DNA of 64,000 nt from an uncultured Planctomycetia bacterium. GTDB taxonomy: Bacteria > Omnitrophota > Gorgyraeia > Duberdicusellales > 4484-171. Where the stretch lies: positions 164,056-228,055 of the forward strand of contig CAZVQU010000001.1 in the NCBI GenBank assembly GCA_964629655.1. Direction: 5' to 3'. The notes beneath the pieces are model-generated. The model was not told where the DNA came from, ran no database searches, and saw nothing but the letters and a program-made list of their open reading frames with translations. Of this stretch, positions 1 to 19,679 are shown in pieces; the stretch's first letter is position 1, and the number at the start of each line of letters is the position of its first letter. A program made the translations under genes and the position numbers.

Positions 1-1629
1 CGTACCATCGGCCATTGTAAAAGCTGCTGCTCCAGCATCACGATTAGCACCATCAGCAAGAGCATCATTTGCTGTTGCAGTAAATGCGCCGTCAATTGTT
101 ACATTCGCATTAACAAGAATACTTCTTCCTGCCTGCAAGGTAAGATTCCCTGTCCCAGCAGAAGAATCCACAGCCTGGGTTACAGTAATATCAGTATTAG
201 CCTGCAAAATAAGATTAGTTCCATTCAGAGCAGCCTCTACGTTCTCATCAGAAAAATCAGCTGTAGCTGTAGGGTTATCAGAAAAGACATCATTAGCAGC
301 AACCGCGTCTACTCCACCATCAGTAATCGTAATATTTTTTGGGTCAATAAATAATGTTCCCCTATCTCCATTCTCAGCTAATAAATCCACTGACCCTTGG
401 AATATCATACTTTCCTTACCGGATACTTCAACAAAGCCACCATCACCGCTGGATAAACCACCCTTTGCTTCAATTTTTGCACCACTCCAGAAGTTTGCCG
501 TCTCAGGTGAATAAACAATTATTTCACCACCATTCCCATCTACCTCAGCATTAGCAGTTGTTAAGCTATCTGCGGTTAAAGCAATAACATCTCGGGCATA
601 CAAATCAATGTTCCCGCCATCGCCGTCGCCAAGCGCGTCAGCATGAACTTGCCCGAACTGGCCAACTTTATCGCCGCGTATCTCTATTTCGCCACCATTT
701 ACTCCTTGATCAATTGCCGATGTAGTAATAGTTCCTGTATTTTGAATTATGCCTTCACTGGCAGAAACCAGAACAATTTTTCCGTTACGCTCAACCATTG
801 AGCCAGCGCGAACAATACCATCCTGATTAATTAACTTATCAAAGACATCCCCAACCGCAGCTACCTCCATATATACTGCGCCGCCATCAGCAGTAATAGT
901 ACCTGCATTGTTAACGCCGACATCTATCCTGTCACCATTTTGATCATAAACATTATCCAAGATTTCCTCATCAACAACTGCCTGGATATTACCGTTACCT
1001 CCTATATCTACAGTAACTTTGCTTCCGGCAACAAGGTTTACTGTTCCAAAATCAGCCCTGATTGCACCTAGATTACTGACTGCACCACCGGCTAATACAA
1101 CCCCTCCGCCAGAAGCAATAATATTGCCGGCATTAGATATAGAGTTTAATTGCTGACCGCCAAGGTCAAGAACATAATTTCCAGATAAAAAATCATCCTG
1201 GCTCATCATAAGAGTAGAAGCAATTAATCCTCCTACATTCACTTGAGCGGTAGGTGAGAATAATATGCCATTGGGGTTAATAAGAAATTGGTTACAATTA
1301 CTATTCCAAATACCGGCGATATCCGAACTACTTGAACCAATAACATTATAAAGCATAGCTGCTGAAGCGTTCGGCCCGAGACTATTTAAGGTATACCCAT
1401 TGCCAATATCAAAAGAGGTTGCGTCTCCCCACCATTTAGAACCATTGGTTATAACCGACATTTCATTACCATTAACCGAAATGTCTGCTGAGCCGATTCG
1501 ATCGGTTATTCCCGAAGGAAGATTTTCAGCATATATATTGCTGGGAAAAATATAGAAGGAAGCCAGAGCAACAGCAAGAAAGACACGTAGCCCCTTTCCT
1601 AAGCTCGGTTTATTTTTACTGTTTTGCAT
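1..1629 (-). CDS. TpsA-like exoprotein (filamentous haemagglutinin family), N-terminal part; gene runs off the window
   Basis: Minus-strand ATG at 1629..1627 gives MQNSKNKPSLGKGLRVFLAVALASFYIFPS, which looks like a signal peptide. It is followed by NPNGIL and GGLIASTL, both typical of the TPS secretion domain. Downstream is Gly/Asn/Thr/Ala-rich sequence consistent with a beta-helix. The reading frame stays open to position 1. Confidence 0.7.
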   Translation of the reverse strand, partial: MQNSKNKPSLGKGLRVFLAVALASFYIFPSNIYAENLPSGITDRIGSADISVNGNEMSVITNGSKWWGDATSFDIGNGYTLNSLGPNASAAMLYNVIGSSSSDIAGIWNSNCNQFLINPNGILFSPTAQVNVGGLIASTLMMSQDDFLSGNYVLDLGGQQLNSISNAGNIIASGGGVVLAGGAVSNLGAIRADFGTVNLVAGSKVTVDIGGNGNIQAVVDEEILDNVYDQNGDRIDVGVNNAGTITADGGAVYMEVAAVGDVFDKLINQDGIVRAGSMVERNGKIVLVSASEGIIQNTGTITTSAIDQGVNGGEIEIRGDKVGQFGQVHADALGDGDGGNIDLYARDVIALTADSLTTANAEVDGNGGEIIVYSPETANFWSGAKIEAKGGLSSGDGGFVEVSGKESMIFQGSVDLLAENGDRGTLFIDPKNITITDGGVDAVAANDVFSDNPTATADFSDENVEAALNGTNLILQANTDITVTQAVDSSAGTGNLTLQAGRSILVNANVTIDGAFTATANDALADGANRDAGAAAFTMADGT

Positions 1630-1683
1630 TTTCATTACTTTCTTCTACTATCAATAATAATTTCTTACGCCGCTAAAAAATAT

Positions 1684-3510
1684 CTAAAACTCATATTGAA
1701 GCCCAAAATGAACCTTACCGGTGGAATCATCGCTTGGTTTCTCTTTACCGGCAGGAAAACCCCAATCTATCCTTCCGCGAAGATGTTCAGCAAAATCAAA
1801 ACGTAATCCAAGCCCGGCACCGACCAAATAGCTGGTGCCTTTCTCGCCAACCTGGGCATTTACAAGATATCCCTTTCCTAAATCAACAAAATATACAAAT
1901 TGAAGAGCATCTTTCAAAGACATTCCCTTTTTGTCATAAGGAACTTTTATTGCTCGAGGGAAGATAAAGGCCGGGGTTCTCAACTCTATGGTTGAAATCC
2001 AACCATAATCGGCAAGATATTCATTCTCTGGGAATCCTCTTATCGTATTAGCCCCACCAAGAGATAATTGTTCGGAATTGACTAGCGGATCCTCAACATA
2101 TTGTCCCCGTATTGAAGCAATCAAATACGACGATAACGGCAAACGGGTAGTCCTGGAAAGTGAACCAACGTATTTTACAAATTCACCCCCGGCATCTAAA
2201 CGGCTGGAACTCACATCATATTTATCCATAGAACCAATGAAATCATCCATGCCAACACGTACTTCACTAGACACGAATGTCCGCCCCATGCTATCTTTCT
2301 CATCAAAGCTTATTCCTGCCTTCAAAACTCGTAGTTCATCATGGCTTGTTTCCTGGCCTAATATCTTGTTCACTACACTTATCGAATCCAACCCGGCAGT
2401 AACCGTGCTGGCAATATTAATCGGAGTCGGCTCTAAGAAATTATCATCAAATAAAGTATGTCGCCCATATACACCCCAAAGCGTTGCTCTACCTTCAGGA
2501 GTAAGGATTTGAAACATTTCACCGATGTCAGCCTGACTATACATGCCGTAAAACCCTAAGCGAGTATCGTAGCGAGAAATCGGGAAATTATAATCAAGAC
2601 TGCCTGCATATACTCTATCATAGTTAGAGCCTGCCCGCAAATTCAAAGACAAAATATCATCATTCCCAAGAAGATTGTTATGTACAAAGCCTAGCTCAGA
2701 ACGGTACTTGCCGCTATATTCGGTCCCCTGATTATTATACCCTAAATACCAATGTATCGGACTCCTTTCTTCTTCAAGTTTCAATAAAACATCCGAAGTA
2801 GCCGGCTCTTCACCCGGCAGTAATACCGCTTTTACCACTCTATCCGGCTGTCTATTAAACCGTTTAATATCCTTTTCCAGCTTAGCGTAATCCAAAATTT
2901 GCCCTTCCTCGACAATCAATTTACGCTTAATTTTCTCTTTGCTGTAATACTTACCGTCTTCAGCCTTAACCTTACCCAAACGGCCTTCAATAACCTGGAA
3001 TTCTATACTACCATCTGTAACTTCTTGTGCAGGCGCGTAAGCCAAACTGGTAAGATACCCTTTGCTACGATAAAATGCAGTAAGTTCATCAGCTGCATTT
3101 TTCAAATCACTCATTCCTAAGTCTTTATCGCGATATTTATCTAAAATCACCTCAAAATCTTTAGCCTTAAATAAATACACTCCATTTAAAATGAACTTCT
3201 CTACAAAAACTTTTGGCTCGGGCGGAAGTAATGCCTCCTTTGCCGCGGGAACCGTATCTGCCACTCTTTCTATAACGTCTCTTTGTCTCCGGATTATCTC
3301 TTCCTGTGCCGAAACTTTTTTCTCCAATTTTTTAATTCTTTTTTCAAATTCATCAACTCGGCTAACTTTTTCTTTAAGCCGATTTAATTCTTCCATTATC
3401 GCCTTAATATCGCTGCTCTCACTGGGAAAAACAGCAGTACTATTTGACAATAAAAAGACTAAGCTTATAAATACGACAACGAAATTCTTTTTATTGATAA
3501 TTTTCCTCAT
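1684..3510 (-). CDS. TpsB outer-membrane transporter (ShlB/FhaC family) of a two-partner secretion system
   Basis: 608 aa with a signal peptide and POTRA-like segments (VEKFILNGVYLF...). The C-terminal beta-barrel ends in the OMP signature ...GLQYEF. It sits immediately upstream of the TpsA-like gene. Confidence 0.75.
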   Translation of the reverse strand: MRKIINKKNFVVVFISLVFLLSNSTAVFPSESSDIKAIMEELNRLKEKVSRVDEFEKRIKKLEKKVSAQEEIIRRQRDVIERVADTVPAAKEALLPPEPKVFVEKFILNGVYLFKAKDFEVILDKYRDKDLGMSDLKNAADELTAFYRSKGYLTSLAYAPAQEVTDGSIEFQVIEGRLGKVKAEDGKYYSKEKIKRKLIVEEGQILDYAKLEKDIKRFNRQPDRVVKAVLLPGEEPATSDVLLKLEEERSPIHWYLGYNNQGTEYSGKYRSELGFVHNNLLGNDDILSLNLRAGSNYDRVYAGSLDYNFPISRYDTRLGFYGMYSQADIGEMFQILTPEGRATLWGVYGRHTLFDDNFLEPTPINIASTVTAGLDSISVVNKILGQETSHDELRVLKAGISFDEKDSMGRTFVSSEVRVGMDDFIGSMDKYDVSSSRLDAGGEFVKYVGSLSRTTRLPLSSYLIASIRGQYVEDPLVNSEQLSLGGANTIRGFPENEYLADYGWISTIELRTPAFIFPRAIKVPYDKKGMSLKDALQFVYFVDLGKGYLVNAQVGEKGTSYLVGAGLGLRFDFAEHLRGRIDWGFPAGKEKPSDDSTGKVHFGLQYEF

Positions 3511-5735
3511 CTATCTTGTGCCTTTCTTCGTTTACGAAGCTTTTCAGCTTGTTTAGCTTCTCTCGCAACGCGAGCTTTCTCTCGCTTAATCTCCAGATTA
3601 ACTTCTCTTTGTATTTGCTTGCGGAGTTTTGCAGCCTGCTTAGCATCTTTCGCAGCTTGGGCTCTTTCTCTCTTATCCTGGATTCGAGCTTCTTTCTCTC
3701 TCTTCTTGCGGAGCTTTTCAGCTTTCTTAGCTTCCTTCTCAGCCTGGGCTGTTTCTCTCTTAATCTCCAGATTAACTTTTCTTTGTATTTGCTTACGAAG
3801 ATTTTGGGCTTGTTTAGTTTCTGCCGCGGTTTGAATGCTCTCTCGCTTAGCCTGGAGTTGATCTTCTCTTTGTTTCTTCCTGCGGATTTTTTCCATCAAC
3901 TTAGCCTCTTTTGCAGCCTTCGCTTTCTTTCTTCTAACATATAATTCCACTTCTTTTTGTTTCTGCTTACTGAGTTTTTCAGCTTTTTTAGCCTCCTTGG
4001 CGGCTTGCGCTTTTTCTTTCTTGGCTTGGCGCTGAGCTGCTTTATCTTGAGCCGCTAGTTTAGCTGCTCTTTTTTCCTGCTTGCGAAGCCTTTCAGCTGC
4101 CTTAGCCTCTTTTGCGGCTTGAGCTACTTCTCTCTTAACTTTTAACTCAGCTTCTTTTTGTATTTGCTTACGGACTTTTGCAGCTTCCTTGGCAGCTTTT
4201 TTAGCTTGAATTCGAGCTTCTTTTTGCTCCTGTTCGCGGAGTTTTTCAGCCTGCTTAGCCTCTTCCGCAGCTTGAGCCTCCTCTCTCATAACTTTCAACT
4301 CAGCTTCTTTTTGTATTTGCTTATGAAGTTTTGCAGCTTTCTCAGCTTCCTTCTTAACCTGGGCTGCTTCTCTCTTAACCTGCAAATCGACTTCTTTTTG
4401 TATTTGCTTATCAAGCTTCTCAGCTTGTTTAGTACCTTTCGCGGGCCGACTTACCCGCTTACTCAAAATCGCTTTTATCTTTTTCTTTTTCTTACGAACT
4501 TCTCTTTTTAAACCTTTCTTGTCTGTAATATCCTCAACGTAATTGAATATGGGCAGAGCAGTTTCATATTCTCCTATTAGAAATAAATCATTCGCGTCTT
4601 CAAAAATCTCCTGAGGTGTCTTTTTAACTTTTATAACTATATAATCGCTCGTTCCCTCCACAACGGTAGTTTTTTTACGCTTAAGCTGCAGCTCGACTTC
4701 TTTTTGTATCTTCCTGCGAAGTTTTTCAGCCCGTTCAGCTTCTTTCTCGGTCTGAACTTTTCTACCTCGACCATCTAGCTTAGCTGCTCTCTCTTCCTGC
4801 CTCCGGAATTCTTCAGCTAACTTAGCCTCTTCCGCGGCTTGAGCTTCCTCTCGCTTAAGCTGCAACTCAGCTTCTCTTTGCATTCGCTTGTGGAGCTCTT
4901 TTGCTTGCCTAGCTTCCTCCTCGGCTTGGACTTCTTTTCTTGGAACACTTACCTCACCTGTTCTCTCTTCCTGCTTAGGGAATTTTCCAGTTTTTTTAGC
5001 TTCCTTGGCGGCTTGGGCTTTTTCTCTCTTATCCTGGATTCGAGCTTCTTTTTGCTCCTGCCTGCGGAGTTTTTCAGCTTTTTTAGCCTCCTTGGCGGCT
5101 TGGGCTTTTTCTCTTTTATCCTGGATTCGAGCTTCTTTTTGCTCCTGCTTGCGGAGTTTTGCAGCTTCCTTAGCATCTTTTCTGGCCTGGACCTCTCGTG
5201 CCTTCAACTCGGCTTTTATCCTTTTATTCTTCTCCTTGTCTTTAACACTATCTCTCTTAGCCTGGATTCGAGCCTCTTTCTCTTCCTGTTTGCGGAGTTT
5301 TGCAGCCTGCTTAGCGTCTTTTGCAGCTTCCTTAGCAGCTTTTTTAGCTTGAATTCGAGCTTCTTTTTGCTCCTGCTTACGGAGTTTTGCAGCCTGTTTA
5401 GCCTCCTTCGCGGTAGAATACTCCTTTTCTGGTTCTGAGGGAATAGTTGACTTCTCTTCTAAGGAAGGCCTTGTAAAAATACTTAGAGTACTATTTATTC
5501 TGTCCTTGCGAATACTCTCTAAATATATCTTTGCCTTTTCGTTGTAAGGATTAACCATTAAGGCCTTTTTGAATTCTGTTTTGGCCTCTTGAATGCGGCC
5601 GCTTTCTAAAAAAGTTTCACCTAATTCTACGAGGTAATCATCTGAAGAAGGTAAGTCAATATAATCATCTGAAGAGGGTAAACCGTTTAGGGGGAAAATG
5701 AGCAGCATTAAAGATAGTATGAGCAGTATCTTCAT
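3507..5735 (-). CDS. Secreted single-TPR protein with long TolA-like Lys/Glu/Ala/Gln/Arg-rich repeat region
   Basis: 742 aa with a signal peptide. One TPR-like unit is present (LVELGETFLESGRIQEAKTEFKKALMVNPYNEKAKIYL). Dozens of approximately 22-aa repeats follow, of the type KEAKQAEKLRKQEQKEARIQAKK. The stop overlaps the tpsB start in ATGA (3507..3510). Confidence 0.8.
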   Translation of the reverse strand: MKILLILSLMLLIFPLNGLPSSDDYIDLPSSDDYLVELGETFLESGRIQEAKTEFKKALMVNPYNEKAKIYLESIRKDRINSTLSIFTRPSLEEKSTIPSEPEKEYSTAKEAKQAAKLRKQEQKEARIQAKKAAKEAAKDAKQAAKLRKQEEKEARIQAKRDSVKDKEKNKRIKAELKAREVQARKDAKEAAKLRKQEQKEARIQDKREKAQAAKEAKKAEKLRRQEQKEARIQDKREKAQAAKEAKKTGKFPKQEERTGEVSVPRKEVQAEEEARQAKELHKRMQREAELQLKREEAQAAEEAKLAEEFRRQEERAAKLDGRGRKVQTEKEAERAEKLRRKIQKEVELQLKRKKTTVVEGTSDYIVIKVKKTPQEIFEDANDLFLIGEYETALPIFNYVEDITDKKGLKREVRKKKKKIKAILSKRVSRPAKGTKQAEKLDKQIQKEVDLQVKREAAQVKKEAEKAAKLHKQIQKEAELKVMREEAQAAEEAKQAEKLREQEQKEARIQAKKAAKEAAKVRKQIQKEAELKVKREVAQAAKEAKAAERLRKQEKRAAKLAAQDKAAQRQAKKEKAQAAKEAKKAEKLSKQKQKEVELYVRRKKAKAAKEAKLMEKIRRKKQREDQLQAKRESIQTAAETKQAQNLRKQIQRKVNLEIKRETAQAEKEAKKAEKLRKKREKEARIQDKRERAQAAKDAKQAAKLRKQIQREVNLEIKREKARVAREAKQAEKLRKRRKAQDR
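3540..5440. repeat. Intragenic tandem direct DNA repeats (approximately 66-75 nt units) encoding the KEAK repeats
   Basis: An example is the near-identical 75-nt units at about 5000..5075 and 5076..5150. The long opposite-strand ORFs seen here are repeat artefacts. Confidence 0.7.
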
Positions 5736-5899
5736 TATAGTAATTTTATCAAAAAAATGCTAATATTTCAAGCATTTTTCCTTATTTTTCGATTTTAAAT
5801 CGGGGGTTTTAATCTGTTCTGAAGAAAGTAATTCTAAAAGTTAGAATTTATAGCCAAAACTTCCGTAATAACTCTTCACACAATGCACTATCATCTTCC

Positions 5900-7357
5900 T
5901 CAACCGGCTTTTTTTCTTATAAAAACACCGAGTAAAAAAATACTACAAATAAAAGGAAAAAACTCTCCGTGCTTATTGTAAAAACTTCTCTCCTCATTCA
6001 AAGAGACTACAAAGTTCTTGGTTCCGGCAAAGAATACTTCCTTTCTATTCTTCCGAAATTTCTCAATTTCGCCTTTAAAAGAAACCCAACCGCTTATGCC
6101 GGTATTAGCGCTTCGGATTATAGAAATTCTATTCTCAACAGCTCTTAAAGTCATAATGCTGAGGTGCTGGCTGGCTTCCGGCTCCCCCTTAAACCAGGCA
6201 TCATTAGTGATGTTTACTAGAAAATCGTTGCCCCGTGCAAAATTCATAACATGCTTAGGGAAAACATCTTCGAAACAAATAAGTGCAGAAAATCTCTTAC
6301 CCTTATGAGAAAAACTCACGAAATCGTCGCCTCTGGCCATATCCCCAATGGAATTAAAGACGCTGATAAAGGTTAAGAATCTTCTTAAAGGAACATACTC
6401 ACCATATGGAACTAATTTTATCTTTTGGTAAGCGTCTACGAGCTTTGCTTTCTTATCAAATTGCAAAGCCTCATTGTAAAACTGGCCTTCTTTTTCTGTC
6501 ACAGCTCCAATAACAACATCCTTTTCTAGCTTCCAGATAAATTGTTCCAATTCATAGAAATTTTCTTCACCAACAGTAAGCGGCCAGGAAGCTTCAGGAA
6601 AAATTACTAAAGAGTCTTCTTCTGTTTCTTCAGCTAAGCTATTTAATACCTTTACAATTTTAAACCGGGAAAAAGGCTCCCACTTTAATTCCTGAGGAAT
6701 ATTCGGTTGGACTATTGATATTTTATGAGAATCTGTTTCTTTTAAATTTTTTACTCTGTAGACTGAGTATGAAAAGAAAATTGTAAAGACAAAAAAAACG
6801 AAAATTGTCTTCTTGAAAATATTTTTTCTTAACTCCGGGTCTCTGCTTCTTTTGCTTAGAAACAAAAATGCCTGAAGAATTAAAATATTTACCATTACAA
6901 TTAAAAAAGAGATAAGTTTTGTTCCAGCTAAATCTGCTATCTGGATAAGGTAAAAATTATCGTATTGGGAATACCCTAAATTTGCCCAGCCAAATCCACA
7001 CCAGATATTTTCTTTTAAAAACTCTAGGAGGACCCAAAGGCAAGGCAAAGTAATAAGCCTCAAGGTCTTCCTGTAAAGATTCCTCCCAAGCAACGAAAAA
7101 ATTATACTGTAGATAGAAAGGTAAGAAAGTAAAAAAAGTAACCCTAGCTTGGTAACATTAGCTACCCAAAAAAGAGTAAGGCCATAGAAAGAAAGAGCGA
7201 AAACTATCCCCGAGAAGACAGCTGTCTTAAGGCGTCCTCTACTTATTGCATAGATAAAAGGAGCTATTGAAAACCAAACCAGGAAAGAAAGATTGGGCAG
7301 GTTAAAACTTAATCCGGTTAGCGCGCCGCTGAGAAAAGATAATATTAAGCTGATCAT
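5900..7357 (-). CDS. lnt: Apolipoprotein N-acyltransferase
   Basis: 485 aa. The N-terminus is polytopic membrane sequence. The C-terminus is a CN-hydrolase domain with a catalytic Cys in ALICFEDVF. Confidence 0.8.
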   Translation of the reverse strand: MISLILSFLSGALTGLSFNLPNLSFLVWFSIAPFIYAISRGRLKTAVFSGIVFALSFYGLTLFWVANVTKLGLLFLLSYLSIYSIIFSLLGRNLYRKTLRLITLPCLWVLLEFLKENIWCGFGWANLGYSQYDNFYLIQIADLAGTKLISFLIVMVNILILQAFLFLSKRSRDPELRKNIFKKTIFVFFVFTIFFSYSVYRVKNLKETDSHKISIVQPNIPQELKWEPFSRFKIVKVLNSLAEETEEDSLVIFPEASWPLTVGEENFYELEQFIWKLEKDVVIGAVTEKEGQFYNEALQFDKKAKLVDAYQKIKLVPYGEYVPLRRFLTFISVFNSIGDMARGDDFVSFSHKGKRFSALICFEDVFPKHVMNFARGNDFLVNITNDAWFKGEPEASQHLSIMTLRAVENRISIIRSANTGISGWVSFKGEIEKFRKNRKEVFFAGTKNFVVSLNEERSFYNKHGEFFPFICSIFLLGVFIRKKAG

Positions 7358-7409
7358 GATTTAGTCCATAGTTCGTGTGCGATGCCCCTCCTATGGGTTA
7401 CGAACTATT

Positions 7410-10271
7410 CTATTTTCCACAACACTTCTTGTATTTCTTACCGCTACCGCAAGGGCAAGGTTCATTTCTGCCTACCTTCTTAGTAACAGAAATAGTCTTA
7501 GGGGCCGGGGGGGACTTTTCTTTGCTTTTATCCAAAGGTGTGTATTGGGAGTGTATAAAATTTTTGGCTGAATCAGTGAAGACTCCTACCTCTTCTTCTG
7601 CGGGTTTTATCTTTGATCTAAAAGCTAACTCGGCAATACCTTCTTTAATCGCAACAACCATCTCCTGAAAAGCAAAATAAGATTCTTTTTGATATTCTAC
7701 TAAGGGATCAACATGAGCATGAGCCCGCAAATGTATGCCCTCTCTCAGATGATCTACAGTTAAAAGATGCTCCTTCCAACGAGAATCCACAACCCATAGG
7801 CTAACTGCTTTTTCCATCTGACGCATATTCTGAAATCCAGATTTTTCTTCCTTCTCCCGATAAATACTTCTAAGCCTTTTACTGAGGAAATCTACTGCCT
7901 GGTCAGGCAATAAACTACTAAGTTCATCAATCGGTATCTCTAAATCAAACTTGGATTTTATCCAATGAGCCAATCCTATAAAATTACTCTCTTCCTGAAA
8001 ATAATGAGGAATGTCCCTCTCTAAGAACTCATCAACCATAGAAAGGATTTCCTCTTTCATATTTTTGTTCTCTAAAATCTCTTTTCTCTGACTATAGATA
8101 ACCTCTCTTTGTTTATTCATCACATTATCATACTGCAAGAGTTGTTTTCGAATCTCAAAATTATGAGCCTCTACCTTCTTTTGAGCAGCAGCTAAAGAAT
8201 GATTAATAAGTCCGTGCTCTATTGGCTGATCTTCAGAAAAGCCAAAGGCTTCCATCAAACCATAAATCCTCTCCGAACCAAATAGACGCATTAAATCATC
8301 CTCTAGCGAGACATAGAAACGAGAGGAACCGGGATCACCTTGACGTCCCGACCTACCCCTAAGCTGATTATCAATTCTTCTTGCTTCGTGACGCTGAGTG
8401 CCGATGATATACAAACCTCCCAATTTAATAACTTCGTCATGCTCAGCCTGAAATTTATCCTTATGCTCATTATTTAAATGCTCATATTCTTCTCTGTAGC
8501 TAGGACTTTCAGCAAGTATATTATTGCGGGCTAAGATATCTTTAATAAAGTAGTCAATATTCCCTCCTAAAACTATATCGGTGCCTCGTCCAGCCATATT
8601 AGTAGCAATGGTTATCTGGGATAGATGACCGGCCTGGGCAATAATGACAGCCTCTTTCTCATGATACTTAGCATTCAAAATATTGTAAGGGATACCTTTC
8701 TTCTGGAGCAAAAAAGAAAGTTGCTCTGAGTCTTCAATTGAAGTTGTACCCACCAAAACAGGCCTCTTTATCTTGTAAAGCTCTTCAATCTCACCTATTA
8801 CAGCATTAAATTTACCCCTCTTGTTCTTGTAAATTCTATCAGCACAATTCTCCCTTATTAAAGGTTTATTCGTAGGAACTGCCATTACATCTAACTTGTA
8901 GATATGATTAAATTCGCTAGCCTCTGTATAAGCAGTTCCAGTCATCCCAGCTAGCTTATCGTACATTCGAAAGTAATTCTGTAGAGTAATTGTGGCTAGA
9001 GTCTGGCTCTCTTCTTGAATTCTTAAACCTTCCCTTGCCTCTACAGCTTGATGCAGACCATCAGACCAACGCCGACCCGACATAAGCCGGCCGGTAAACT
9101 CATCAACAATAACTACCTTGCCATCTTTTACTATATATTCTCTATCTCTGTGAAAAAAATTATGTGCTCTAAGGCTTTGAGTAAGATAATGTTTCCAGGA
9201 ATTAGAAAGTTTATCCGGTGTTTCTTCGGAAATGCTGCTAATACCTAAAAGTTTTTCAGCTCTTTTTTCACCTTTTGGGGTAAAATCAATATTTTGAGTT
9301 TTCTCTTCACCGATTGCATCAAAATTCTGCTCTAGCTCTTCGGAAGATAGTTTCGTCTCACTTCCATCAAGATTCTTCAAGGTAATCGTTCCGTCTGTTT
9401 TATTATAAAAACTCTGGATAATAAGCTTAGTTTTTAATTGCTTAACTATTCTGTCAGCATCATAATATTTTTTTACATTACTCTCAGCAGGACCGGATAT
9501 AATCAAAGGTGTCCTGGCTTCATCTACCAATATAGAATCAACCTCATCAACTATTGCATAAAAATGTTCTCTTTGAACCATATCCGCCAAATTAGTCACC
9601 ATATTGTCGCGAAGATAATCAAACCCAAATTCATTATTAGTTCCATAGGTTATATCGCAAAGATAAGCTGTTCTTCTTTGCTGCTTGGGCATATCTTGCT
9701 GGATAACCCCGCAAGATAAGCCTAAGAACTCATAGATTGGCTCCATCCACTCTTTATCACGCTTAGCTAAATAGTCATTAACCGTGATGATGTGAACACC
9801 TTCACCGGTAAGGGCATTCAAAGATGCGGCAAGAGTCGCCACAAGAGTTTTTCCTTCTCCGGTAACCATCTCGGCTATTTTATTTTTATGTAGGATAATT
9901 CCACCCAGGATTTGAACATCAAAATGGCGCATCTTCACTGTCCTCTTTGCTGCCTCTCTGACCATCGCAAAGTAGAAAGGAAGAATTTCATCAAGAATAC
10001 TTTCGACTACCTCTTTATACTTCTGGGGGGCTACATTGGCAGTCCTAGATCTTATTAATTCCTTAAATTCAGATGTTTTTTCTTTGAAGAATCCATCGGG
10101 TTTATCTATCAAAGCTTCTTCTTGAGAATTAACCTTACTAACTAAAGAAGCTAGAGGGGGTATCTCCTTTAAGGAAGGGGTGGGAAGTTCACGATTTAAG
10201 CAAATATCCGCTTTAGGCCTTAAGACATTAATCTTTTTCTGGCAGCTTTTAAGAATAAATTTTTTAATCAT
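7410..10271 (-). CDS. secA: Preprotein translocase ATPase SecA
   Basis: 953 aa. Motifs include MRHFDVQILGG, GEGKTLVA and DEVDSILVDEARTPLIISG. The C-terminal zinc finger is CPCGSGKKYKKCCGK. Confidence 0.95.
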   Translation of the reverse strand: MIKKFILKSCQKKINVLRPKADICLNRELPTPSLKEIPPLASLVSKVNSQEEALIDKPDGFFKEKTSEFKELIRSRTANVAPQKYKEVVESILDEILPFYFAMVREAAKRTVKMRHFDVQILGGIILHKNKIAEMVTGEGKTLVATLAASLNALTGEGVHIITVNDYLAKRDKEWMEPIYEFLGLSCGVIQQDMPKQQRRTAYLCDITYGTNNEFGFDYLRDNMVTNLADMVQREHFYAIVDEVDSILVDEARTPLIISGPAESNVKKYYDADRIVKQLKTKLIIQSFYNKTDGTITLKNLDGSETKLSSEELEQNFDAIGEEKTQNIDFTPKGEKRAEKLLGISSISEETPDKLSNSWKHYLTQSLRAHNFFHRDREYIVKDGKVVIVDEFTGRLMSGRRWSDGLHQAVEAREGLRIQEESQTLATITLQNYFRMYDKLAGMTGTAYTEASEFNHIYKLDVMAVPTNKPLIRENCADRIYKNKRGKFNAVIGEIEELYKIKRPVLVGTTSIEDSEQLSFLLQKKGIPYNILNAKYHEKEAVIIAQAGHLSQITIATNMAGRGTDIVLGGNIDYFIKDILARNNILAESPSYREEYEHLNNEHKDKFQAEHDEVIKLGGLYIIGTQRHEARRIDNQLRGRSGRQGDPGSSRFYVSLEDDLMRLFGSERIYGLMEAFGFSEDQPIEHGLINHSLAAAQKKVEAHNFEIRKQLLQYDNVMNKQREVIYSQRKEILENKNMKEEILSMVDEFLERDIPHYFQEESNFIGLAHWIKSKFDLEIPIDELSSLLPDQAVDFLSKRLRSIYREKEEKSGFQNMRQMEKAVSLWVVDSRWKEHLLTVDHLREGIHLRAHAHVDPLVEYQKESYFAFQEMVVAIKEGIAELAFRSKIKPAEEEVGVFTDSAKNFIHSQYTPLDKSKEKSPPAPKTISVTKKVGRNEPCPCGSGKKYKKCCGK

Positions 10272-11433: not shown

Positions 11434-12510
11434 CTATCCTTCTAGCTTCCCCCGAGTCCTTAATTCCATTGCCAGTTCTTCTTTGCTATCAGCATACTCT
11501 AGGGCAACTTCAGGACTAACTTTACCTGATTCAACAAGTTCCAGTAAAGATTTTTGGAAATTAACCATTCCGTAGATATCTCCGGAATCAATATACTTAG
11601 GAACTTCCCAAAGCTTATCCTCCCTTATAAGGCGAGATATTGAAGGACTTAGTACCATTGATTCACAGGCCGGGATAAGCCCTGGCTTATCACATCTGGG
11701 AAGCAACCTCTGCGACAATACTCCCTTGATGAGAGAGGAAAGCTGGTTAAGAACAAACTTATGTTGATGAGAAGGAAATAAATTTACTAATCTCTCTACT
11801 GTTGAAGCTGCATTTACCGTATGCAGAGTAGAAAAAACAAGGGCTCCTGTTTGGGCAACAGTTAAGGCTGCATGGCAGGTTTCAACATCACGGATATTTC
11901 CGATATAAATAACATCCGGGGAATGTAAGGCAAATTGCTTAAGAGCATCCTTATAACTCCAGACATCCGTACCTATCTCCCGCTGATTTATTATTGACTT
12001 TTTATCCTCAAAGGTAAATTCGATAGGTTCTTCGATAGTAAAGATATGACGACCGAAATTATTATTAATATACTCTATCATACTGGCAATAGTTGTAGAC
12101 TTTCCGCTCCCAGTTATGCCAGTAAGAAAGATTATTCCTCTTTTTTCTTGACAAAACTTCTTTAATAATTCAGACGGGAGATTAAGATCTTCAAGGGAAG
12201 GAATACGTAAATCAATTTTTCTTACTACTAAAGCTAAGGTACTCCTCTGATAAAATACGCCGACACGAAAACGCCAAAAATCCTTATACCAATACGTAAA
12301 CTCACACCCCTTTTGGCTTCTTAGCTTTTCCTTATCGCTCTCGCGAGTTATTTCCTTAACAATCATGTTTATATTATCTGAACTTATTATCTTATCGCTA
12401 ACCGTCTCTACCCTAGAATAAACCCTTCCCTTAAGGTTTCCATTAGCTCTTATGAAGATATCTGATATATTTTTTTCAATCATTATGTCGAGAATTTCTT
12501 TAAAAGTCAT
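11434..12510 (-). CDS. pilT: Type IV pilus retraction ATPase PilT family
   Basis: 358 aa. Walker A is LTGITGSGKSTT. The sequence IFTIEEPIEF and the overall length match PilT/PilU. Confidence 0.8.
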   Translation of the reverse strand: MTFKEILDIMIEKNISDIFIRANGNLKGRVYSRVETVSDKIISSDNINMIVKEITRESDKEKLRSQKGCEFTYWYKDFWRFRVGVFYQRSTLALVVRKIDLRIPSLEDLNLPSELLKKFCQEKRGIIFLTGITGSGKSTTIASMIEYINNNFGRHIFTIEEPIEFTFEDKKSIINQREIGTDVWSYKDALKQFALHSPDVIYIGNIRDVETCHAALTVAQTGALVFSTLHTVNAASTVERLVNLFPSHQHKFVLNQLSSLIKGVLSQRLLPRCDKPGLIPACESMVLSPSISRLIREDKLWEVPKYIDSGDIYGMVNFQKSLLELVESGKVSPEVALEYADSKEELAMELRTRGKLEG

Positions 12511-12611
12511 TACTTACCTCCTCAATAATCCCGCCAACGGCGAGGGAACTGACCCTGAGCGACTTCGGCACTACGTCGAAAAAATCAAAGGGCCTAAAAA
12601 TAATTTCTTTC

Positions 12612-12881
12612 CTATTTTATCATATCTCTTATTTTTTTCTCTAAATTTATTAGTTTTTCCTTTAGATCTCGGCCCAAAGAATATCCGCCTAATTCTTTTG
12701 AGGATTTTATTACCCGGTGGCAAGGGATAAATAAAGGGTAAGGATTCTTTGCTAAGGCATTTGCTACCGCCCTATAAGCCTTAGGCCTGCCAACTTTTCT
12801 TGCTACCCACTTATAACTACGTAACTGGCCTAAGGGAATCCTTGAAACCACTCCTAATACTTTCTTCTCAAAGTCAGTCAT
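12612..12881 (-). CDS. ogt: Methylated-DNA--protein-cysteine methyltransferase, DNA-binding domain only (Ogt-like)
   Basis: 89 aa containing the PCHRV active-site motif. It overlaps the uvrC stop by 4 nt. Confidence 0.7.
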   Translation of the reverse strand: MTDFEKKVLGVVSRIPLGQLRSYKWVARKVGRPKAYRAVANALAKNPYPLFIPCHRVIKSSKELGGYSLGRDLKEKLINLEKKIRDMIK

Positions 12882-14110
12882 TTGTTTTTAGTTATAGTGA
12901 CTGTTCTCCTCTTGCGAAGTACTAATCCGTAAGCATGGGCAAATCTATGAGCCTCGTCTCTGGCTCTTTGAATTAAATGCAGCCCGGGATTACTTCTAGG
13001 AATAGTCAGGGGGTTTTTTTCCGAAACCGTCCAAACCTCCTCGTTCTTTTTGGCAATACCAATAAGAGGAACCGAAACCCTAAGCGTTTCTAATTCTTTA
13101 TATGCTCGCAAAAGATGGCCTTTACCTCCATCGACAATGATTAAATCCGGCAAAGGGGAATTCTCTTTCTTAAGGCGAGAGTACCTTCTTCTTATAACTT
13201 CAGCAATCATATCATAGTCATCCCTCTCTCTCGCTGTTCTTATTTGAAAACGGCGATAACTATTCTTATCAGGAACTCCATCCCTAAAGATCACCACTGA
13301 ACCCACACAATCACTTCTGCCCAAAGAAGAAATGTCTATAGCTTCTATGAGCAAGGGAAGCTTGGGTAAATTTAAGATCTCCTTTAAAGCAATAATCTCA
13401 TGGGCTTGGGGTTTGCCCTTATAGAGACTGTCAATGGCTAATAATTTATCTCTTAGGGAAGCGGCCCATTCAAACTTTTTTGCTGCTGCCGATTTCTTCA
13501 TCTTAGCAGTTAACTCCTTAGCTAGCTCTCTCCTCTGCCCCTTTAATATTCTGCAAATACTCTGTATAGTGCTCCTGTAAGCACTCATCGACACCTTCCC
13601 CGCGCAGGGAGCCGGACAAAGCTTAAGATGAAAGAATAAACAAGCTTCCTTTGGCATTCTCCTGCAAGAACGATAAGGAAAAACTCTTCTTATTAAAGTT
13701 AGAGCCGACTCTAAAGTCTTTGCCTGAGGGTAAGGACCAAAAAGAATGTTTTTATTCTTTGCCTTAGGCCTTGAAATAAAAATTCTCGGAAATTTCTCCT
13801 TAGTTATTTCAATATAAGGATAACTCTTGTTGTCCCTAAGAGAAATATTATATCTTGGTTTTTTCTCTTTGATTAGAGCGGCTTCTAAAATTAAAGCCTG
13901 TTCTGAGCTCTCACATTCGATATAATCAATATCACTTACATTCTTAAGCAGGCTGTCAGTTTTGAGATCACCTGTTTTAGAAAAATAACTGCTGACTCTC
14001 TTTCGCAAAGAAGAAGCTTTGCCGACATAAAGAATTCTACCCCCCTTTAATTTCATGATGTAGACACCGGGGCTTTGTGGCAATCTTTTTACTTTCTCTC
14101 TAATGCCCAT
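12878..14110 (-). CDS. uvrC: Excinuclease ABC subunit C (short form; C-terminal HhH apparently absent)
   Basis: GIY-YIG motif (GVYIM...ILYVGKA). Cys cluster CRRMPKEACLFFHLKLCPAPCAG. UVR motif, and an RNase H-like segment DLIIVDGGKGHL. Confidence 0.7.
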   Translation of the reverse strand: MGIREKVKRLPQSPGVYIMKLKGGRILYVGKASSLRKRVSSYFSKTGDLKTDSLLKNVSDIDYIECESSEQALILEAALIKEKKPRYNISLRDNKSYPYIEITKEKFPRIFISRPKAKNKNILFGPYPQAKTLESALTLIRRVFPYRSCRRMPKEACLFFHLKLCPAPCAGKVSMSAYRSTIQSICRILKGQRRELAKELTAKMKKSAAAKKFEWAASLRDKLLAIDSLYKGKPQAHEIIALKEILNLPKLPLLIEAIDISSLGRSDCVGSVVIFRDGVPDKNSYRRFQIRTARERDDYDMIAEVIRRRYSRLKKENSPLPDLIIVDGGKGHLLRAYKELETLRVSVPLIGIAKKNEEVWTVSEKNPLTIPRSNPGLHLIQRARDEAHRFAHAYGLVLRKRRTVTITKNK

Positions 14111-16040: not shown

Positions 16041-16733
16041 TCAATTGGGTCCAAGAACTCGTACTAAGAGTGACTCGATAACTAGACGAGGATCCATACC
16101 TTTTTCTTTTATCGCCCGATCTGCCTTCCACAAATATTTAAAATACCTCTCTTTCTCGGTAGGATTTTTAAGAAAAGAAAGCTTTCTAACTAATATTCCT
16201 ATAATCTGCGGTCCTAATATTTTATCTTTGGAGCCACCGGCAAATAACTTCTCAAGGATATACACCGAAACTGCCAAATCATTCCTTTTCAAGCTTGTTA
16301 TAAAATCCTCTATTGTAGCTTTTTCCCTAGTTGAAACTACCCTGAACAAAGCCGCTCTTTTTAAAACAGAGACAAAAAATTCATCATTAGTAAACCGCTT
16401 ATCTCTTTGAAACTGGTAGTAATCTTTATCGGTCTCAAAGATAAGATAACTATTAGATAATACCCTCTTTAAATTACCAAAAAGGAATTTCCTTGCTGCC
16501 GAAGGCAAATCCTGAGAATTCTTAAAAACTGCTATCTTACCTCCTCCGAAAGAAGTGGTAAAAAGTTTTTCTCCTAAATCCTTAGGATTTACCTCTTTGC
16601 CATAAAAGGTAAGAACATTAAGAGATGACTCTTTCCCTTTTAGTATTCTTTTCTTTATATTTTCTACTGCCCGTTGCCGCTGCAAAAAATTAGTTCCCGA
16701 AATTAAAAAAACTCTTTCTCTGATGTTTACCAT
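16041..16733 (-). CDS. holA: Probable DNA polymerase III delta subunit (short)
   Basis: 230 aa. The N-terminus VFLISGTNFLQRQRAVENIKKRIL looks like HolA. It sits in the conserved lptE-holA / holA-rpsT context. Confidence 0.45.
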   Translation of the reverse strand: MVNIRERVFLISGTNFLQRQRAVENIKKRILKGKESSLNVLTFYGKEVNPKDLGEKLFTTSFGGGKIAVFKNSQDLPSAARKFLFGNLKRVLSNSYLIFETDKDYYQFQRDKRFTNDEFFVSVLKRAALFRVVSTREKATIEDFITSLKRNDLAVSVYILEKLFAGGSKDKILGPQIIGILVRKLSFLKNPTEKERYFKYLWKADRAIKEKGMDPRLVIESLLVRVLGPN

Positions 16734-17245
16734 TCTTCCGTAACTGCCTCACATATTCTTCTTGCCGTATCATCTATTAAATCCAGCTGAGCAGCACTCT
16801 CACTCTTTGAATTAGCTCCGGTAAGATAGTAAGTAGTCTCTCCAGTGACATCCTTCTCTTTCAATACTCCTCCATCACCGGATGTAAGCTTTATGTGAGC
16901 GTGGAGACGCAGGCGTTGCTCACTTACTGCATCGCTATCAGTGTAACGTAGGGTCTCTTTACTGTAGTCATTCACCGTGCAAACAAGTTTTAAAGCTTTC
17001 GGGTCTTCGCTTACTACCTTAAGATTTCCGTCGATATTAAACTTACTAACTATCTCATTAGTCAATCTATTCTCAATCAAAATAGGGAAACTCGTATAAT
17101 CTGAGTATTTTCTATTCTCAGAAGTAATATTTATCTTGTTTATTACTGGCTTAATCACTATTGCATCTTCGGTATAAATAAAACCTCGCGTGGTGTACCC
17201 ACAACCAACCACAACAAGAAGTAATAAAACTAAGAAATTTTTCAT
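16727..17245 (-). CDS. Lipoprotein, LptE-like
   Basis: Start chosen at MKNFLVLLLLVVVGCGYTTRG. A GGAGG sits 6 nt upstream and there is a lipobox VVGC. Size and position next to holA fit LptE. Confidence 0.4.
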   Translation of the reverse strand: MKNFLVLLLLVVVGCGYTTRGFIYTEDAIVIKPVINKINITSENRKYSDYTSFPILIENRLTNEIVSKFNIDGNLKVVSEDPKALKLVCTVNDYSKETLRYTDSDAVSEQRLRLHAHIKLTSGDGGVLKEKDVTGETTYYLTGANSKSESAAQLDLIDDTARRICEAVTEEW

Positions 17246-17285
17246 CGGTCGCCTCCTGTAACTTTTTTGCTCTATCCTCAATTAA

Positions 17286-19679
17286 TTACCAAAACCAAAA
17301 CTTCTTCTTCACTCCCTGCTGCTTTTTCTTCTTCCTTAGTTTCGCCGCAAGCAAATCTTTTTTTCTAGCTCTAGCCACCTTTTCCGCCTCTAGCTTCTCT
17401 TGACGCTTCTTTTCCTTGAGCTCTTTCTTCTTTCTTATTTTTTCCTGTTTTTTCTGGATCTTCTCCCTTCGGCGTTTTTGCTTTTCTGCTATTTTTTTGT
17501 TTTTACGCTCCCTTTTTTCTCTTGTTTCCTCGCTTTCGGATTCCCTCTTCTTTCTTATCTTTACATCCTTTAAATATTTTTTCTTTGCCCGAGCTTCCTC
17601 TTTTCTTTTAAGCTTATCTTGCTTCTTTTGCCCTTTGAGAAACTTTTTTTTCTGAGCTCGTTCCTTCTTTATCCTTACTTTTTCCTTTTTATTGCGAAGC
17701 TTTTTGGCCTGCTTAGCTTCTTTTTTAACCTGCCTGCGGAATTTTTCAATTCGTTTAGCTTTTTTCGCGGCCTGAGCTCTTTCTCTCTTGGCCTGAAGCC
17801 GATCTTCTCTTTTGCCCTCCCTGCGGAATTTCTGAACTAGCTTGCTTTCTCTCTTTGCCCGAGCTTTTTCTTCTCTCTTGAGTCTATCCTGCGCTCTCTC
17901 CCGAGCTCGTTTTTTCCTTACCCTTGCCTTTTCCTGTTTCTTACGAAACTTTTCGACCTGTTTAGCTTTCTTAGCAGCTTGAGCCTCCTCTTTTCTCTTG
18001 AGCTTATCTTGCTTCTCTTGCTCTTTGAGAAACTTTTTTTTCTGGACTCGTTCTTGCTTTATCCTTACCTTTTCTTGTTTCTTGCGAATCTTTTTGGCCT
18101 GTTTAGCTTCCTTCGCGGTTTGAGCTTCCTCTTTTCTCTTGAGCTTATCTTGCTTCTTTTGCTCTTTGAGAGACTCCTTCTCTCTGGCTCGCTCTTGCTT
18201 TATCCTTACCTTTTCCTTTTCCTTGCGGAGCTTTTTGGCTTGTTTAGCTTTTTTCGCAGCTTGAGCTTTTTCTCTCTTAACTTTCAACTCAGCTTCTCTT
18301 TGTATTTGCTTGCGGAGTTTTTGAACTTGTTTAGCTTCTTTCGCAACCTTAGCTTCTTCTCGTTTAGCTTGAAGTTGATCTTTTTTTTGTTCCTGCTCAC
18401 GAAGCTCCTCAGCTTGTTTAACTTCTTCCGCAACTTTGGCTTTTTCTCGCTTAGCTTGAAGTTGATCTTTTTTTTGTCCTTGCTTACGAAGCTCCTCAGC
18501 TTGTTTAGCTTTCTTAGCAGCTTGAGCTTCCTCTTTTCTCTTAAGCTTATCTTGCTTCTTTTGCTCTTTGAGAGACTCCTTCTCTCTGGCTCGCTCTTGC
18601 TTTATCCTTACCTTTTCTTGTTTTTTCCTTTCTTTCTCTTCTTGAACTTCCCTTTTTTTTCTTACCCTTTCTTCCTTCTTCGCAGTTAACACTTCTTGGC
18701 TTACTTCCTTCTTTAATTCCCTTTTTGTGATGTTTCTTTGAACCAACCCTTCTAATTCCTCGATTCTTTCTATGGCAAGATCATAATAATCACTATCGGA
18801 ATAATTCTTAACTACTTTTTTATAATAAATTATGCCGCTTTTATATTGATCCTGATTTTCATAAAATTGGCCGGTATTAAATACTTTTTTTGCCTCTTCA
18901 TTCCTTAAGGTTCTAAGCTGATCCTCTGCCTCAGAGGAAATCTTTGCCTCAGGATGATCTTTTATAAACTCATCAAGCCTACTTGCTGCTTCCTGAAGGT
19001 ATGAAGAATCATAATCCGCACCGGAGAATGCTTGTGATGTTGCTAAAGCTAATTGATACTTTGCTGGTGCAGCCCACTCACTATCTGAATAATTATCTAT
19101 GACTTTCTGGAAAGCTTTCCGGGATTCCTCATAGCGCCTCAATTGAAAAAGTATCATTCCTAATTTATATTGGGCTCGGGGTGCATACTCTGAGTATGGA
19201 ACTTTATTAACGATTCCTCCGAATATCTCAATTGATGGATGCTCTACGAAATCATAAAGAGATACGCCTAGCCATTCCTTACGCTCCCTATTCAAAAAAT
19301 ACTCTCCGATATGATATTCTCTCTCCACCACCTCATTTATCCTCTGGCTATTAGGATAGGAAGCGACTAGTTTTTGATACTCTCGAAAAGCATCATAAGG
19401 CTTATCAAACTTCTCCAGGCACCTGGCTAGGTAATATTGAGCCTCAGCAGCCTCCTTAGAATCAGGATAATTTATTAGAAGCTTTTTGAATGCTTCGTAG
19501 GCTTCCTTGAATTGATCCTTCTTGAAATACTTTAGGCCCTGTTTATATTGAAGATAGGGGTTGGCCAAAGCTGCATATTTAGGATTTTTCCACTCTTGGG
19601 TCTTCGGAGACCATATCCAAAAAGGGTAGGCATCAAAGGAAAAAAGAAGTAAAATCAAAAGGATTATGCTCTTTCTCAT
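17286..19679 (-). CDS. Secreted multi-TPR (BamD/CpoB-like) protein with long Lys/Glu/Arg/Gln-rich repeat tail ending FWFW
   Basis: 797 aa. A signal peptide is followed by about 330 aa of TPR-like repeats. About 450 aa of KEAKQ/KRKEEAQAAKKAKQ repeats follow. The C-terminus is KKKFWFW. It is a paralogue of the 3507..5735 protein. Confidence 0.8.
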   Translation of the reverse strand: MRKSIILLILLLFSFDAYPFWIWSPKTQEWKNPKYAALANPYLQYKQGLKYFKKDQFKEAYEAFKKLLINYPDSKEAAEAQYYLARCLEKFDKPYDAFREYQKLVASYPNSQRINEVVEREYHIGEYFLNRERKEWLGVSLYDFVEHPSIEIFGGIVNKVPYSEYAPRAQYKLGMILFQLRRYEESRKAFQKVIDNYSDSEWAAPAKYQLALATSQAFSGADYDSSYLQEAASRLDEFIKDHPEAKISSEAEDQLRTLRNEEAKKVFNTGQFYENQDQYKSGIIYYKKVVKNYSDSDYYDLAIERIEELEGLVQRNITKRELKKEVSQEVLTAKKEERVRKKREVQEEKERKKQEKVRIKQERAREKESLKEQKKQDKLKRKEEAQAAKKAKQAEELRKQGQKKDQLQAKREKAKVAEEVKQAEELREQEQKKDQLQAKREEAKVAKEAKQVQKLRKQIQREAELKVKREKAQAAKKAKQAKKLRKEKEKVRIKQERAREKESLKEQKKQDKLKRKEEAQTAKEAKQAKKIRKKQEKVRIKQERVQKKKFLKEQEKQDKLKRKEEAQAAKKAKQVEKFRKKQEKARVRKKRARERAQDRLKREEKARAKRESKLVQKFRREGKREDRLQAKRERAQAAKKAKRIEKFRRQVKKEAKQAKKLRNKKEKVRIKKERAQKKKFLKGQKKQDKLKRKEEARAKKKYLKDVKIRKKRESESEETREKRERKNKKIAEKQKRRREKIQKKQEKIRKKKELKEKKRQEKLEAEKVARARKKDLLAAKLRKKKKQQGVKKKFWFW

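Follow-up and report, generated by a model that had tools for sequence, protein, structure and literature searches.

A conserved charged-repeat gene precedes tpsB in the two-partner secretion loci of one Omnitrophota clade

The 64,000-nucleotide (nt) stretch analysed here (contig CAZVQU010000001.1 of assembly GCA_964629655.1, from an uncultured bacterium of the GTDB phylum Omnitrophota; below, the window) carries on the minus strand of positions 1..5735 three consecutive open reading frames (ORFs), namely a gene for a 742-amino-acid (aa) charged-repeat protein, tpsB and the 5' end of tpsA, that is, a two-partner secretion (TPS) locus with an additional gene in front. Comparison with related loci indicated that, at the sequence level, this first cistron is the conserved first gene of a three-gene TPS locus specific to one Omnitrophota TpsB clade. 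A fast-evolving, basic, predicted rod-like protein encoded before tpsB points to an undescribed third partner for the export of very large acidic surface proteins. We tentatively regard the 742-aa protein as a BamD-like periplasmic accessory or scaffold of TpsB, a reading to which we assign a probability of about 0.42; the protein would reside in the periplasm, bind TpsB or TpsA physically and affect secretion.

Analysis of the three ORFs agreed with the original prediction, made from the letters of this DNA, that they form one unit. Between the genes the minus strand is free of terminator-like sites, promoter-like hexamers were confined to the 164-nt gap between the first cistron (5735) and lnt (5900..7357), and the stop codon of the repeat-protein gene and the start codon of tpsB overlap in an ATGA as had been read (Table 1), from which translational coupling of the two genes may be deduced; tpsB and tpsA are separated by 48 nt. 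The better of the promoter-like sequences has a -10 element that ends 8 nt before the ATG of the first cistron, where no Shine-Dalgarno sequence can be seen, so that the mRNA may be leaderless or nearly so. An Rfam scan of positions 1..8000 gave nothing relevant and hence no riboswitch in the leader.

Orthologous loci were gathered with a TpsB profile searched against species-representative genomes, the flanking ORFs being read, and from the contigs of individual TpsB relatives. A basic gene whose product is rich in Lys, Glu, Ala, Gln and Arg and/or contains tetratricopeptide repeats (TPRs) abuts tpsB in 16/16 orthologous Omnitrophota loci with readable upstream DNA (the window, L001-L006, L081, L082/83, L084, L086-L089, L091 and L094), and the synteny that the original prediction had proposed to look for in relatives is thus general among these loci. 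Identity to the window TpsB ranges from 39 to 92% across these loci (L094 is not among the scored loci), and the source organisms looked up (n=3) represent separate named Omnitrophota genera. The upstream proteins have an isoelectric point (pI) of 9.1-10.1, as computed for ten full-length or near-full-length sequences. The upstream gene overlaps tpsB by 4 nt in the window and in L003, L082 and L086 and by 1 nt in L087; at the remaining loci the two are 0-49 nt apart. The genes further upstream vary by locus (lnt, ParA-like, Ysc84, DUF378 and Sm_multidrug_ex), which indicates that the trio is kept while its surroundings change. An Ysc84 (PF04366) gene lies just upstream of the trio in L084 (8219-8920), L089 (8279-8824) and L091 (6067-6765), where the window has lnt.

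A central hallmark module, consisting of a strand-like segment and a TPR-like hairpin, occurs as one copy in 18 of the 20 family proteins checked by regular expression or by a module hidden Markov model (HMM); its consensus is xSDFITIK…DA..L…G.YEEAL.LYNYA.DI.RD, in short SDYIxIK…YNYAxDI. The module is visible by eye in P0100 and P0162, both missed by the regular expression, and exactly one is present in every full-length upstream protein examined, with the exception of L003. Run on 91 loci and the window, the module HMM matched only genes upstream of an orthologous TpsB, and gave zero matches in about 70 TpsB loci that are paralogous Omnitrophota ones or come from other phyla, as well as in the rest of the window. 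An exhaustive search of 1.84 billion representative proteins, using a profile built from 3 sequences (weaker than the 10-module alignment mentioned below), returned 110 matches at E<1e-3; single-stretch family members account for about 35 and generic multi-TPR proteins for the others.

The remainder of the upstream protein is variable. In the window, L002 and L089 it consists almost wholly of charged helix; L087 and L088 alternate TPR hairpins with charged helices, L005 and L006 have long TPR arrays, and in L082 a Lys/Pro-rich, TonB-like linker replaces the charged helices; Pfam TPR cut-offs are passed by L005, L006, L087 and L088 (33-113 bits). Length and repeat number vary widely across relatives. 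Between the window and its nearest relative, L081, TpsB is 92% identical, TpsA 63% and the C-terminus of the repeat protein 59%.

The linkage was also followed in reverse, with the module as the starting point and the genes around it read on metagenome contigs, which yielded three loci (L092, L093 and L094). In L094 the module gene is directly followed by an orthologous TpsB gene. In L092/L093, from a relative with 74% identity to the window in lnt, a hallmark-module repeat protein is encoded after lnt. This 720-aa protein (L093:1276-3462) starts with a signal peptide, contains repeats of the same type and a module 69% identical to that of the window, and ends in DxNxDGK Ca-binding-like repeats. 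The gene after it encodes a lipid A acyltransferase, and the one after that (4607-5533) a product that combines a signal peptide and a TPR start, 48% identical to the N-terminus of the window protein, with an unannotated domain. In sequence the first cistron of the window looks like a mosaic of these two L093 genes. Linkage to TpsB is consequently strong and not absolute. An unrelated envelope protein standing beside tpsB through inherited gene order, with no functional coupling, would account for this family member in a non-TPS setting at the same post-lnt position as in the window, and for the lack of a diagnostic domain in the 742-aa protein; against it stand the complete linkage across widely diverged TpsBs despite changing flanks, the recurrent stop/start overlaps and a natural TPR-TpsB fusion (P0056, below), and we hold it to be improbable.

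The 742-aa protein has a mass of 86 kDa, a pI of 10.05 and a net charge of +84 (+11 per 100 aa), and Lys, Ala, Glu, Arg and Gln make up 68% of its composition (146 Lys, 113 Ala and 108 Glu of 742 residues). A single N-terminal hydrophobic segment is seen by eye; it is the sole basis on which the protein had been called secreted, and with it the protein would be exported by Sec. The orthologues show clearer AXA-type sites (SFA-EK, LYA-AG, ACA-ET and SFA-LD), suggesting cleavable signal peptides and not a membrane anchor. The one TPR of the original prediction is backed in part: Pfam TPR_2 matches aa 34-65 below threshold (17.8 bits, cut-off 27), and in the AlphaFold2 model, where helices 31-45, 48-61 and 66-83 have a predicted local distance difference test score (pLDDT) of 84-89, the first two form a hairpin that agrees with it, but a second TPR-like hairpin at aa 374-403, inside the hallmark module and with a core resembling TPR and pentatricopeptide repeat hairpins, had been missed.

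The 29-aa repeats, with the consensus AKEAKKAEKLRKQxQKExxLQxKRExAQA, number 19 by HMM-defined units (8 + 11), and not about 30 as first estimated. Tandem Repeats Finder (TRF) gave a period of 87 nt and the protein autocorrelation peaked at lag 29; the units are 73-89% identical in DNA and hence are not exact copies. Modelled by AlphaFold2 without an alignment, the protein is nearly all helix with no compact fold (pLDDT 72.7, predicted template-modelling score (pTM) 0.22), and its long helices at aa 109-248, 267-354 and 436-741 comprise 534 residues, or some 80 nm at full extension. The repeats have low power at 3.5 residues and a main period of about 3.2 (29/9). In the rods, opposite-charge pairs at i/i+4 amount to 0.08-0.17 per residue, and the fraction of Lys plus Arg is 0.30-0.37 as against 0.17-0.25 for Asp plus Glu, the basic excess being about 2-fold in the two longest helices and slight in the third.

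Searches with the 742-aa protein gave no match in Pfam above cut-off, in NCBIfam or by sequence in the PDB, and an exact look-up found no record. Foldseek with the full model returned nothing beyond local TPR similarity over about 50 aa, in no case at E<=0.001. The protein has no YfiO match in Pfam and no lipobox cysteine, and Pfam and NCBIfam revealed no recognisable membrane anchor, lipobox or peptidoglycan-binding domain. In word-seeded phmmer with the whole protein not one of 8,000 candidates reached E<=1e-3, probably owing to composition filtering; a profile of 10 hallmark modules found 2 matches only in the same protein database. Gene calling adds to this, as in L091 (6800-7968), where the gene caller had taken only the last 103 aa of an approximately 390-aa family ORF and added a spurious 83-aa antisense gene. 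Family genes are thus under-represented in protein databases because gene callers truncate or miss them, and the blank searches reflect both composition filters and truncated gene calls; being systematically mis-called or missed, the genes are invisible in standard annotation.

Low complexity, the absence of a phmmer homologue or exact record and the shadow ORFs on the opposite strand would be expected of an ORF that is no gene at all. Comparative data refute this view, to which we give practically no credence: the 742-aa ORF is a real, conserved gene and not a chance low-complexity artefact, given its signal-peptide-like start, repeats that have diverged at the DNA level and related genes at the same position upstream of tpsB elsewhere, in addition to its two hairpin modules, the hallmark module and the matches of the exhaustive profile search. 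The plus-strand Leu/Ser/Phe-rich ORFs opposite the repeat gene (3516..3944, 4158..4511, 4839..5438 and 4888..5352; up to 199 aa) are shadows of the Lys/Glu/Ala codon repeats, not genes.

TpsB and TpsA are canonical, ordinary members of their families, and both had been correctly assigned beforehand. TpsB matched Pfam ShlB over aa 238-571 (PF03865; 4.7e-25, 89 bits, cut-off 22.7) and POTRA_2 over aa 103-176 (PF08479; 1.9e-17, 63 bits), and matched POTRA once more, weakly, at aa 179-218. By sequence its matches in the PDB were CdiB (2e-17) and the TpsB4 POTRA domain (5e-9). The AlphaFold2 model built with 31 sequences (pLDDT 76.4, pTM 0.66) is almost all beta-strand in its C-terminal part, and its best Foldseek matches were CdiB 6wim (3.3e-27, template-modelling scores 0.64/0.71) and FhaC 4ql0 (1e-24). 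In the L6 motif G485, G486, R491 and G492 are invariant in 31 orthologues. Relatives of TpsB at 50-92% identity are almost all Candidatus Omnitrophota.

Between the signal peptide and the first POTRA domain TpsB has long N-terminal helices, kept in the close orthologues with L62, E63 and Q69 invariant; the distant orthologues L005 and L006 and the paralogues have the canonical short H1-type N-terminus instead. These helices were considered as a docking site for the accessory protein, an idea dropped because L005 and L006 keep the accessory gene with a short N-terminus. In the TpsB orthologues P0016 and P0045 two or three near-identical first POTRA segments (KKFVINGDTLFTPKDFE…) stand in tandem.

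The 545-aa TpsA fragment matched Pfam TPS (PF05860; 8.9e-17, 62 bits against a cut-off of 33.5) and TIGR01901 (4.7e-14, 52 bits against 29.1); its NPNGI and GGLIASTL motifs and a signal peptide were read by eye. Adjacency of tpsB to this TPS-domain gene suggests that TpsB may secrete TpsA as its cognate substrate. The three points on which the original prediction had staked itself have therefore come out in its favour: the TPS and ShlB models match, the homologous loci carry the repeat-protein gene and the ORF is no artefact.

The visible part of TpsA has a net charge of -39 and a computed pI of 4.05, and all readable TpsA parts across the loci are strongly acidic, their net charge per 100 aa being -5 to -13. 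Among the TpsAs of known length the sizes are 9,757 aa in L082, 5,135 in L088, 4,545 in L091, 4,154 in L086, 4,060 in L089, 3,832 in L087, 2,504 at the P0056 locus and 1,755 in L003. TpsA of L084 is split into a 1,053-aa TPS-domain gene (11967-15126) and a 3,804-aa gene (15227-21845), which could be real or an assembly or frameshift effect.

Among the TpsBs, P0056 has an N-terminal signal peptide, a TPR module and a charged linker, and the TPR module is homologous to aa 4-103 of the window protein (27% identity, E 3e-7). That the fusion replaces the upstream gene was not supported, since the locus still has a separate upstream gene of 175 aa. The fusion bears on the view that TpsA is not the only exported product and that the first cistron encodes a polycationic fibril or adhesin of the cell surface. 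Such a protein would be displayed or released together with TpsA, might exit via TpsB despite having no TPS domain or take some other path, and might attach to the negatively charged surfaces of target cells. Fast divergence and repeat expansion, as in surface fibrillar proteins, a divergence rate similar to that of TpsA, the signal peptide read by eye and extended rods exceeding the periplasm would all suit such a product. We nevertheless consider it rather improbable: Pfam and NCBIfam detected neither a TPS domain nor any other signal known for outer-membrane targeting, the same repeat occurs on a BamD-like periplasmic protein (below), and in P0056 the TPR module is fused to the N-terminus of TpsB, which in FhaC-type proteins is periplasmic except for the plug helix.

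This BamD/YfiO-like protein (797 aa) is encoded on the same strand of the window and ends in a polycationic tail of 477 aa (net +121) in which at least 5 copies of the 29-aa repeat of the first cistron were found (repeat HMM 56.8 bits, 5 units); the tail is 68-78% identical in DNA to 3507..5735. In the 64-kb window the repeat is restricted to these two ORFs. BamD is the TPR partner of BamA, and BamA and TpsB both belong to the Omp85 family. In this organism the repeat thus sits on the product of the gene before tpsB and on what is, by homology, the TPR partner of BamA; that the two share it may reflect a more general trait of the envelope in Omnitrophota. No BamD homologues were found in the fetched relative loci. 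The BamD-like protein has no lipobox cysteine and its gene adjoins LptE (16727..17281).

The shared repeat is equally what would be expected if the 742-aa protein were a generic envelope spacer or tether, TolA-, Lpp- or TonB-like, that sets the distance of outer-membrane machines from peptidoglycan or the inner membrane or ties them to it, is not cargo-specific and has the TPS locus as one of its carriers. The TonB-like linker of L082, the L093 family member that is not beside TpsB and the wide variation in length and repeat number fit this idea as well, and so do three TpsB orthologues (P0027, P0032 and P0037) whose N-termini bear one to three SH3_3 domains joined by linkers rich in Pro, Ala, Val and Lys. 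The sole SH3_3-TpsB locus seen (L090, 1423-3918) has a PAS-GGDEF gene and no family gene upstream; the SH3 substitution rests on this one short contig. On the other side, Pfam and NCBIfam revealed no membrane anchor, lipobox, recognisable peptidoglycan-binding domain or TolA C-terminal domain in the window protein, and the signal peptides of its orthologues look cleavable; the tight clade-specific linkage and the overlap with tpsB argue instead for a dedicated role. We take the spacer to be the main rival, possible though on balance unlikely.

We thus return to the accessory reading, under which the 742-aa protein would be a periplasmic subunit of TpsB, as BamD is for BamA. The docking partner of its TPR-like hairpins would be TpsB, the TPS domain of the cargo or both, and the invariant short SDYIxIK strand could bind a POTRA sheet by beta-augmentation. 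The polycationic helices would serve as a reach arm or spacer, which might hold the long, polyanionic, unfolded TpsA electrostatically between the Sec translocon and the outer-membrane pore. This reading draws on the 16/16 linkage together with the specificity of the module HMM and the TPR-TpsB fusion of P0056, on the presence of its 29-aa repeat in the BamD-like protein of this genome as well, on the charge complementarity between the first cistron and the TpsAs, on the size of the cargo, on the co-divergence seen against the nearest relative and on a spacer-like variability in which TPR arrays or Lys/Pro linkers replace charged helices and the module is kept.

Several observations weigh on the other side. 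In the model the extended rods would be far longer than a typical periplasm, and the periodicity and salt-bridge counts fit neither a heptad coiled coil nor a classical ER/K single alpha-helix. Charge complementarity is weak evidence, because acidic TpsAs are common. The upstream gene of L003 has a signal peptide and charged repeats without the hallmark module, and no TpsB follows the L092/L093 module gene within the 2 kb left on the contig. Finally, paralogous Omnitrophota TPS loci with TpsAs of 1,800-3,300 aa have no first-cistron gene, which weakens the proposal that giant cargo requires the accessory. A stronger version is unlikely in our estimation: true "three-partner" secretion, in which an obligate periplasmic subunit would sit with its TPR/hallmark module on the POTRA domains, its rods forming a track from Sec to the pore for polyanionic adhesins of 2,000-10,000 aa, and, given the repeat on the BamD-like protein, Omp85 machines of this phylum would generally receive long basic arms. 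If it held, basic arms on Omp85-family machines would be a new principle of envelope organisation.

Comparison with CdiB/CdiA and FhaC/FhaB revealed the same two POTRA domains, ShlB-type barrel and L6 (V/I)RG(F/Y) motif in TpsB and the same N-terminal TPS domain with NPNGI in TpsA, and the order B then A is that of cdiBA. The Omnitrophota loci differ in adding a conserved first cistron overlapped with tpsB, in TpsAs that reach 9,757 aa and, in the close orthologues, in a long helical N-terminal segment of TpsB in place of the short H1.

TPR-containing or periplasm-spanning partners are paired with outer-membrane barrel translocases in BamD/BamA, Slam and TamB/TamA also; the BamA and TamA barrels are of the Omp85 family and that of Slam is different. 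P0056 is, like Slam, a TPR-barrel fusion, and some orthologues give weak TPR_Slam matches below cut-off. The 742-aa protein nevertheless has no significant sequence match to YfiO, Slam or TamB, and differs from BamD in lacking a lipobox and in having one or two isolated hairpins in place of a five-TPR domain, so that the resemblance is one of functional analogy only.

TolA domain II, the proline-rich rod of TonB and CpoB/YbgF are long periplasmic segments presumed to span the envelope, CpoB combining a coiled coil with a TPR. The original prediction had called the repeat protein TolA-like, and long Lys/Ala/Glu-rich helical or extended segments are indeed common to all of them. The likeness is compositional only: the 742-aa protein ends inside the repeat array without a TolA or TonB C-terminal domain, its neighbours are lnt, secA and tpsB and not tolQR/pal or exbBD, and no N-terminal membrane anchor is evident in the orthologues. 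Membership of the TolA family was rejected on the missing C-terminal domain and gene context. From these proteins, CpoB/YbgF included, it differs further in being strongly positive and in a 29-aa repeat without a heptad signal.

A further gene accompanies tpsA and tpsB in hmw1ABC, hxuCBA and the loci with cdiC, cdiO or bcpO, and a 2017 review lists CdiI/CdiO/CdiC, BcpO, HMW1C and HxuC as the only extra partners (PMC5422565). HMW1C is a cytoplasmic glycosyltransferase, HxuC an outer-membrane TonB-dependent receptor, CdiC a member of an acyltransferase family and BcpO, depending on the species, a predicted periplasmic lipoprotein or cytoplasmic protein. None is a TPR or charged-helix protein, and none shares a sequence family with the 742-aa protein in Pfam or NCBIfam. 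A survey of Omp85/TpsB proteins mentions a fusion of BamA-BamB type and no partner with TPRs or a coiled coil (PMC4104836). The terms ShlB and POTRA are absent from the Omnitrophota giant-gene papers checked, in two of which TPR appears only as a domain of giant proteins, and further literature searches gave nothing closer to a charged-repeat first cistron at a TPS locus. The statement of the original prediction that no such locus had been described stands within the literature searched, in which the charged-repeat/TPR third partner is undescribed and the TPS pair itself is of a known type.

Type Vb secretion is regarded as a minimal two-protein route for very large proteins. The TpsAs of the clade studied here include such proteins (up to 9,757 aa), and its members are believed to live in attachment to other cells. 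How unfolded chains of thousands of residues cross the periplasm without energy or dedicated chaperones is the open question addressed here, and a clade-wide, tightly coupled gene before TpsB provides a concrete candidate for a dedicated periplasmic factor of this route.

Table 1. Features of the three-gene TPS locus and of the BamD-like gene in the window (aa numbers refer to the respective protein).
Feature	Position	Strand	Basis
First cistron, 742-aa ORF	3507..5735	-	ORF list
Signal-peptide-like N-terminus, aa 1-18, MKILLILSLMLLIFPLNG	5682..5735	-	Read by eye from translation
N-terminal TPR-like hairpin and third helix, aa 31-83	5487..5645	-	Pfam TPR_2 sub-threshold and AlphaFold2
Repeat block A, 8 units of 29 aa, aa 109-356	4668..5411	-	TRF, autocorrelation, repeat HMM, AlphaFold2
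Hallmark module, aa 362-426: strand-like TSDYIVIK and TPR-like hairpin ending FNYVEDI	4458..4652	-	Regular expression, module HMM, AlphaFold2
Repeat block B, 11 units of 29 aa, aa 432-740	3516..4442	-	Repeat HMM; modelled as one 306-residue helix
Promoter-like TTGAAA-17-TAAAAT with TG extension, ending 8 nt before ATG	5743..5771	-	Consensus match only
ATGA overlap: first-cistron stop TGA 3509..3507, tpsB start ATG 3510..3508	3507..3510	-	Read from sequence
tpsB, 608-aa Omp85-family transporter	1684..3510	-	ORF; Pfam ShlB and POTRA_2
TpsB N-terminal helices, aa 33-85, between signal peptide and POTRA1	3256..3414	-	Orthologue alignment, AlphaFold2
POTRA_2 domain, aa 103-176	2983..3204	-	Pfam
ShlB-type beta-barrel, aa 238-571	1798..2799	-	Pfam, orthologue alignment, AlphaFold2
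L6 motif GGANTIRGF, aa 485-493	2032..2058	-	Fits (V/I)RG(Y/F)
tpsA 5' end, start at 1635, 545 aa visible, gene leaves window	1..1635	-	ORF; TPS models
TPS secretion domain, aa 48-304	724..1494	-	Pfam, NCBIfam
NPNGI motif of TpsA, aa 120-124	1264..1278	-	Read directly
GGLIASTL motif of TpsA, aa 135-142	1210..1233	-	Read directly
BamD/YfiO-like gene, 797 aa	17286..19679	-	Pfam YfiO 48 bits, aa 157-308
Polycationic C-terminal tail of BamD-like protein, 477 aa, net +121	17289..18719	-	Sequence and repeat HMM

Directly upstream of the TPS unit lnt and secA (5900..10271) are found on the same minus strand, an adjacency that is probably coincidental since the other loci have different neighbours. The gene content of the window, which includes lnt, secA, a release factor gene, a PilT-like ATPase gene, uvrC, murJ, LptE, the BamD-like gene and comEC, fits a diderm organism.

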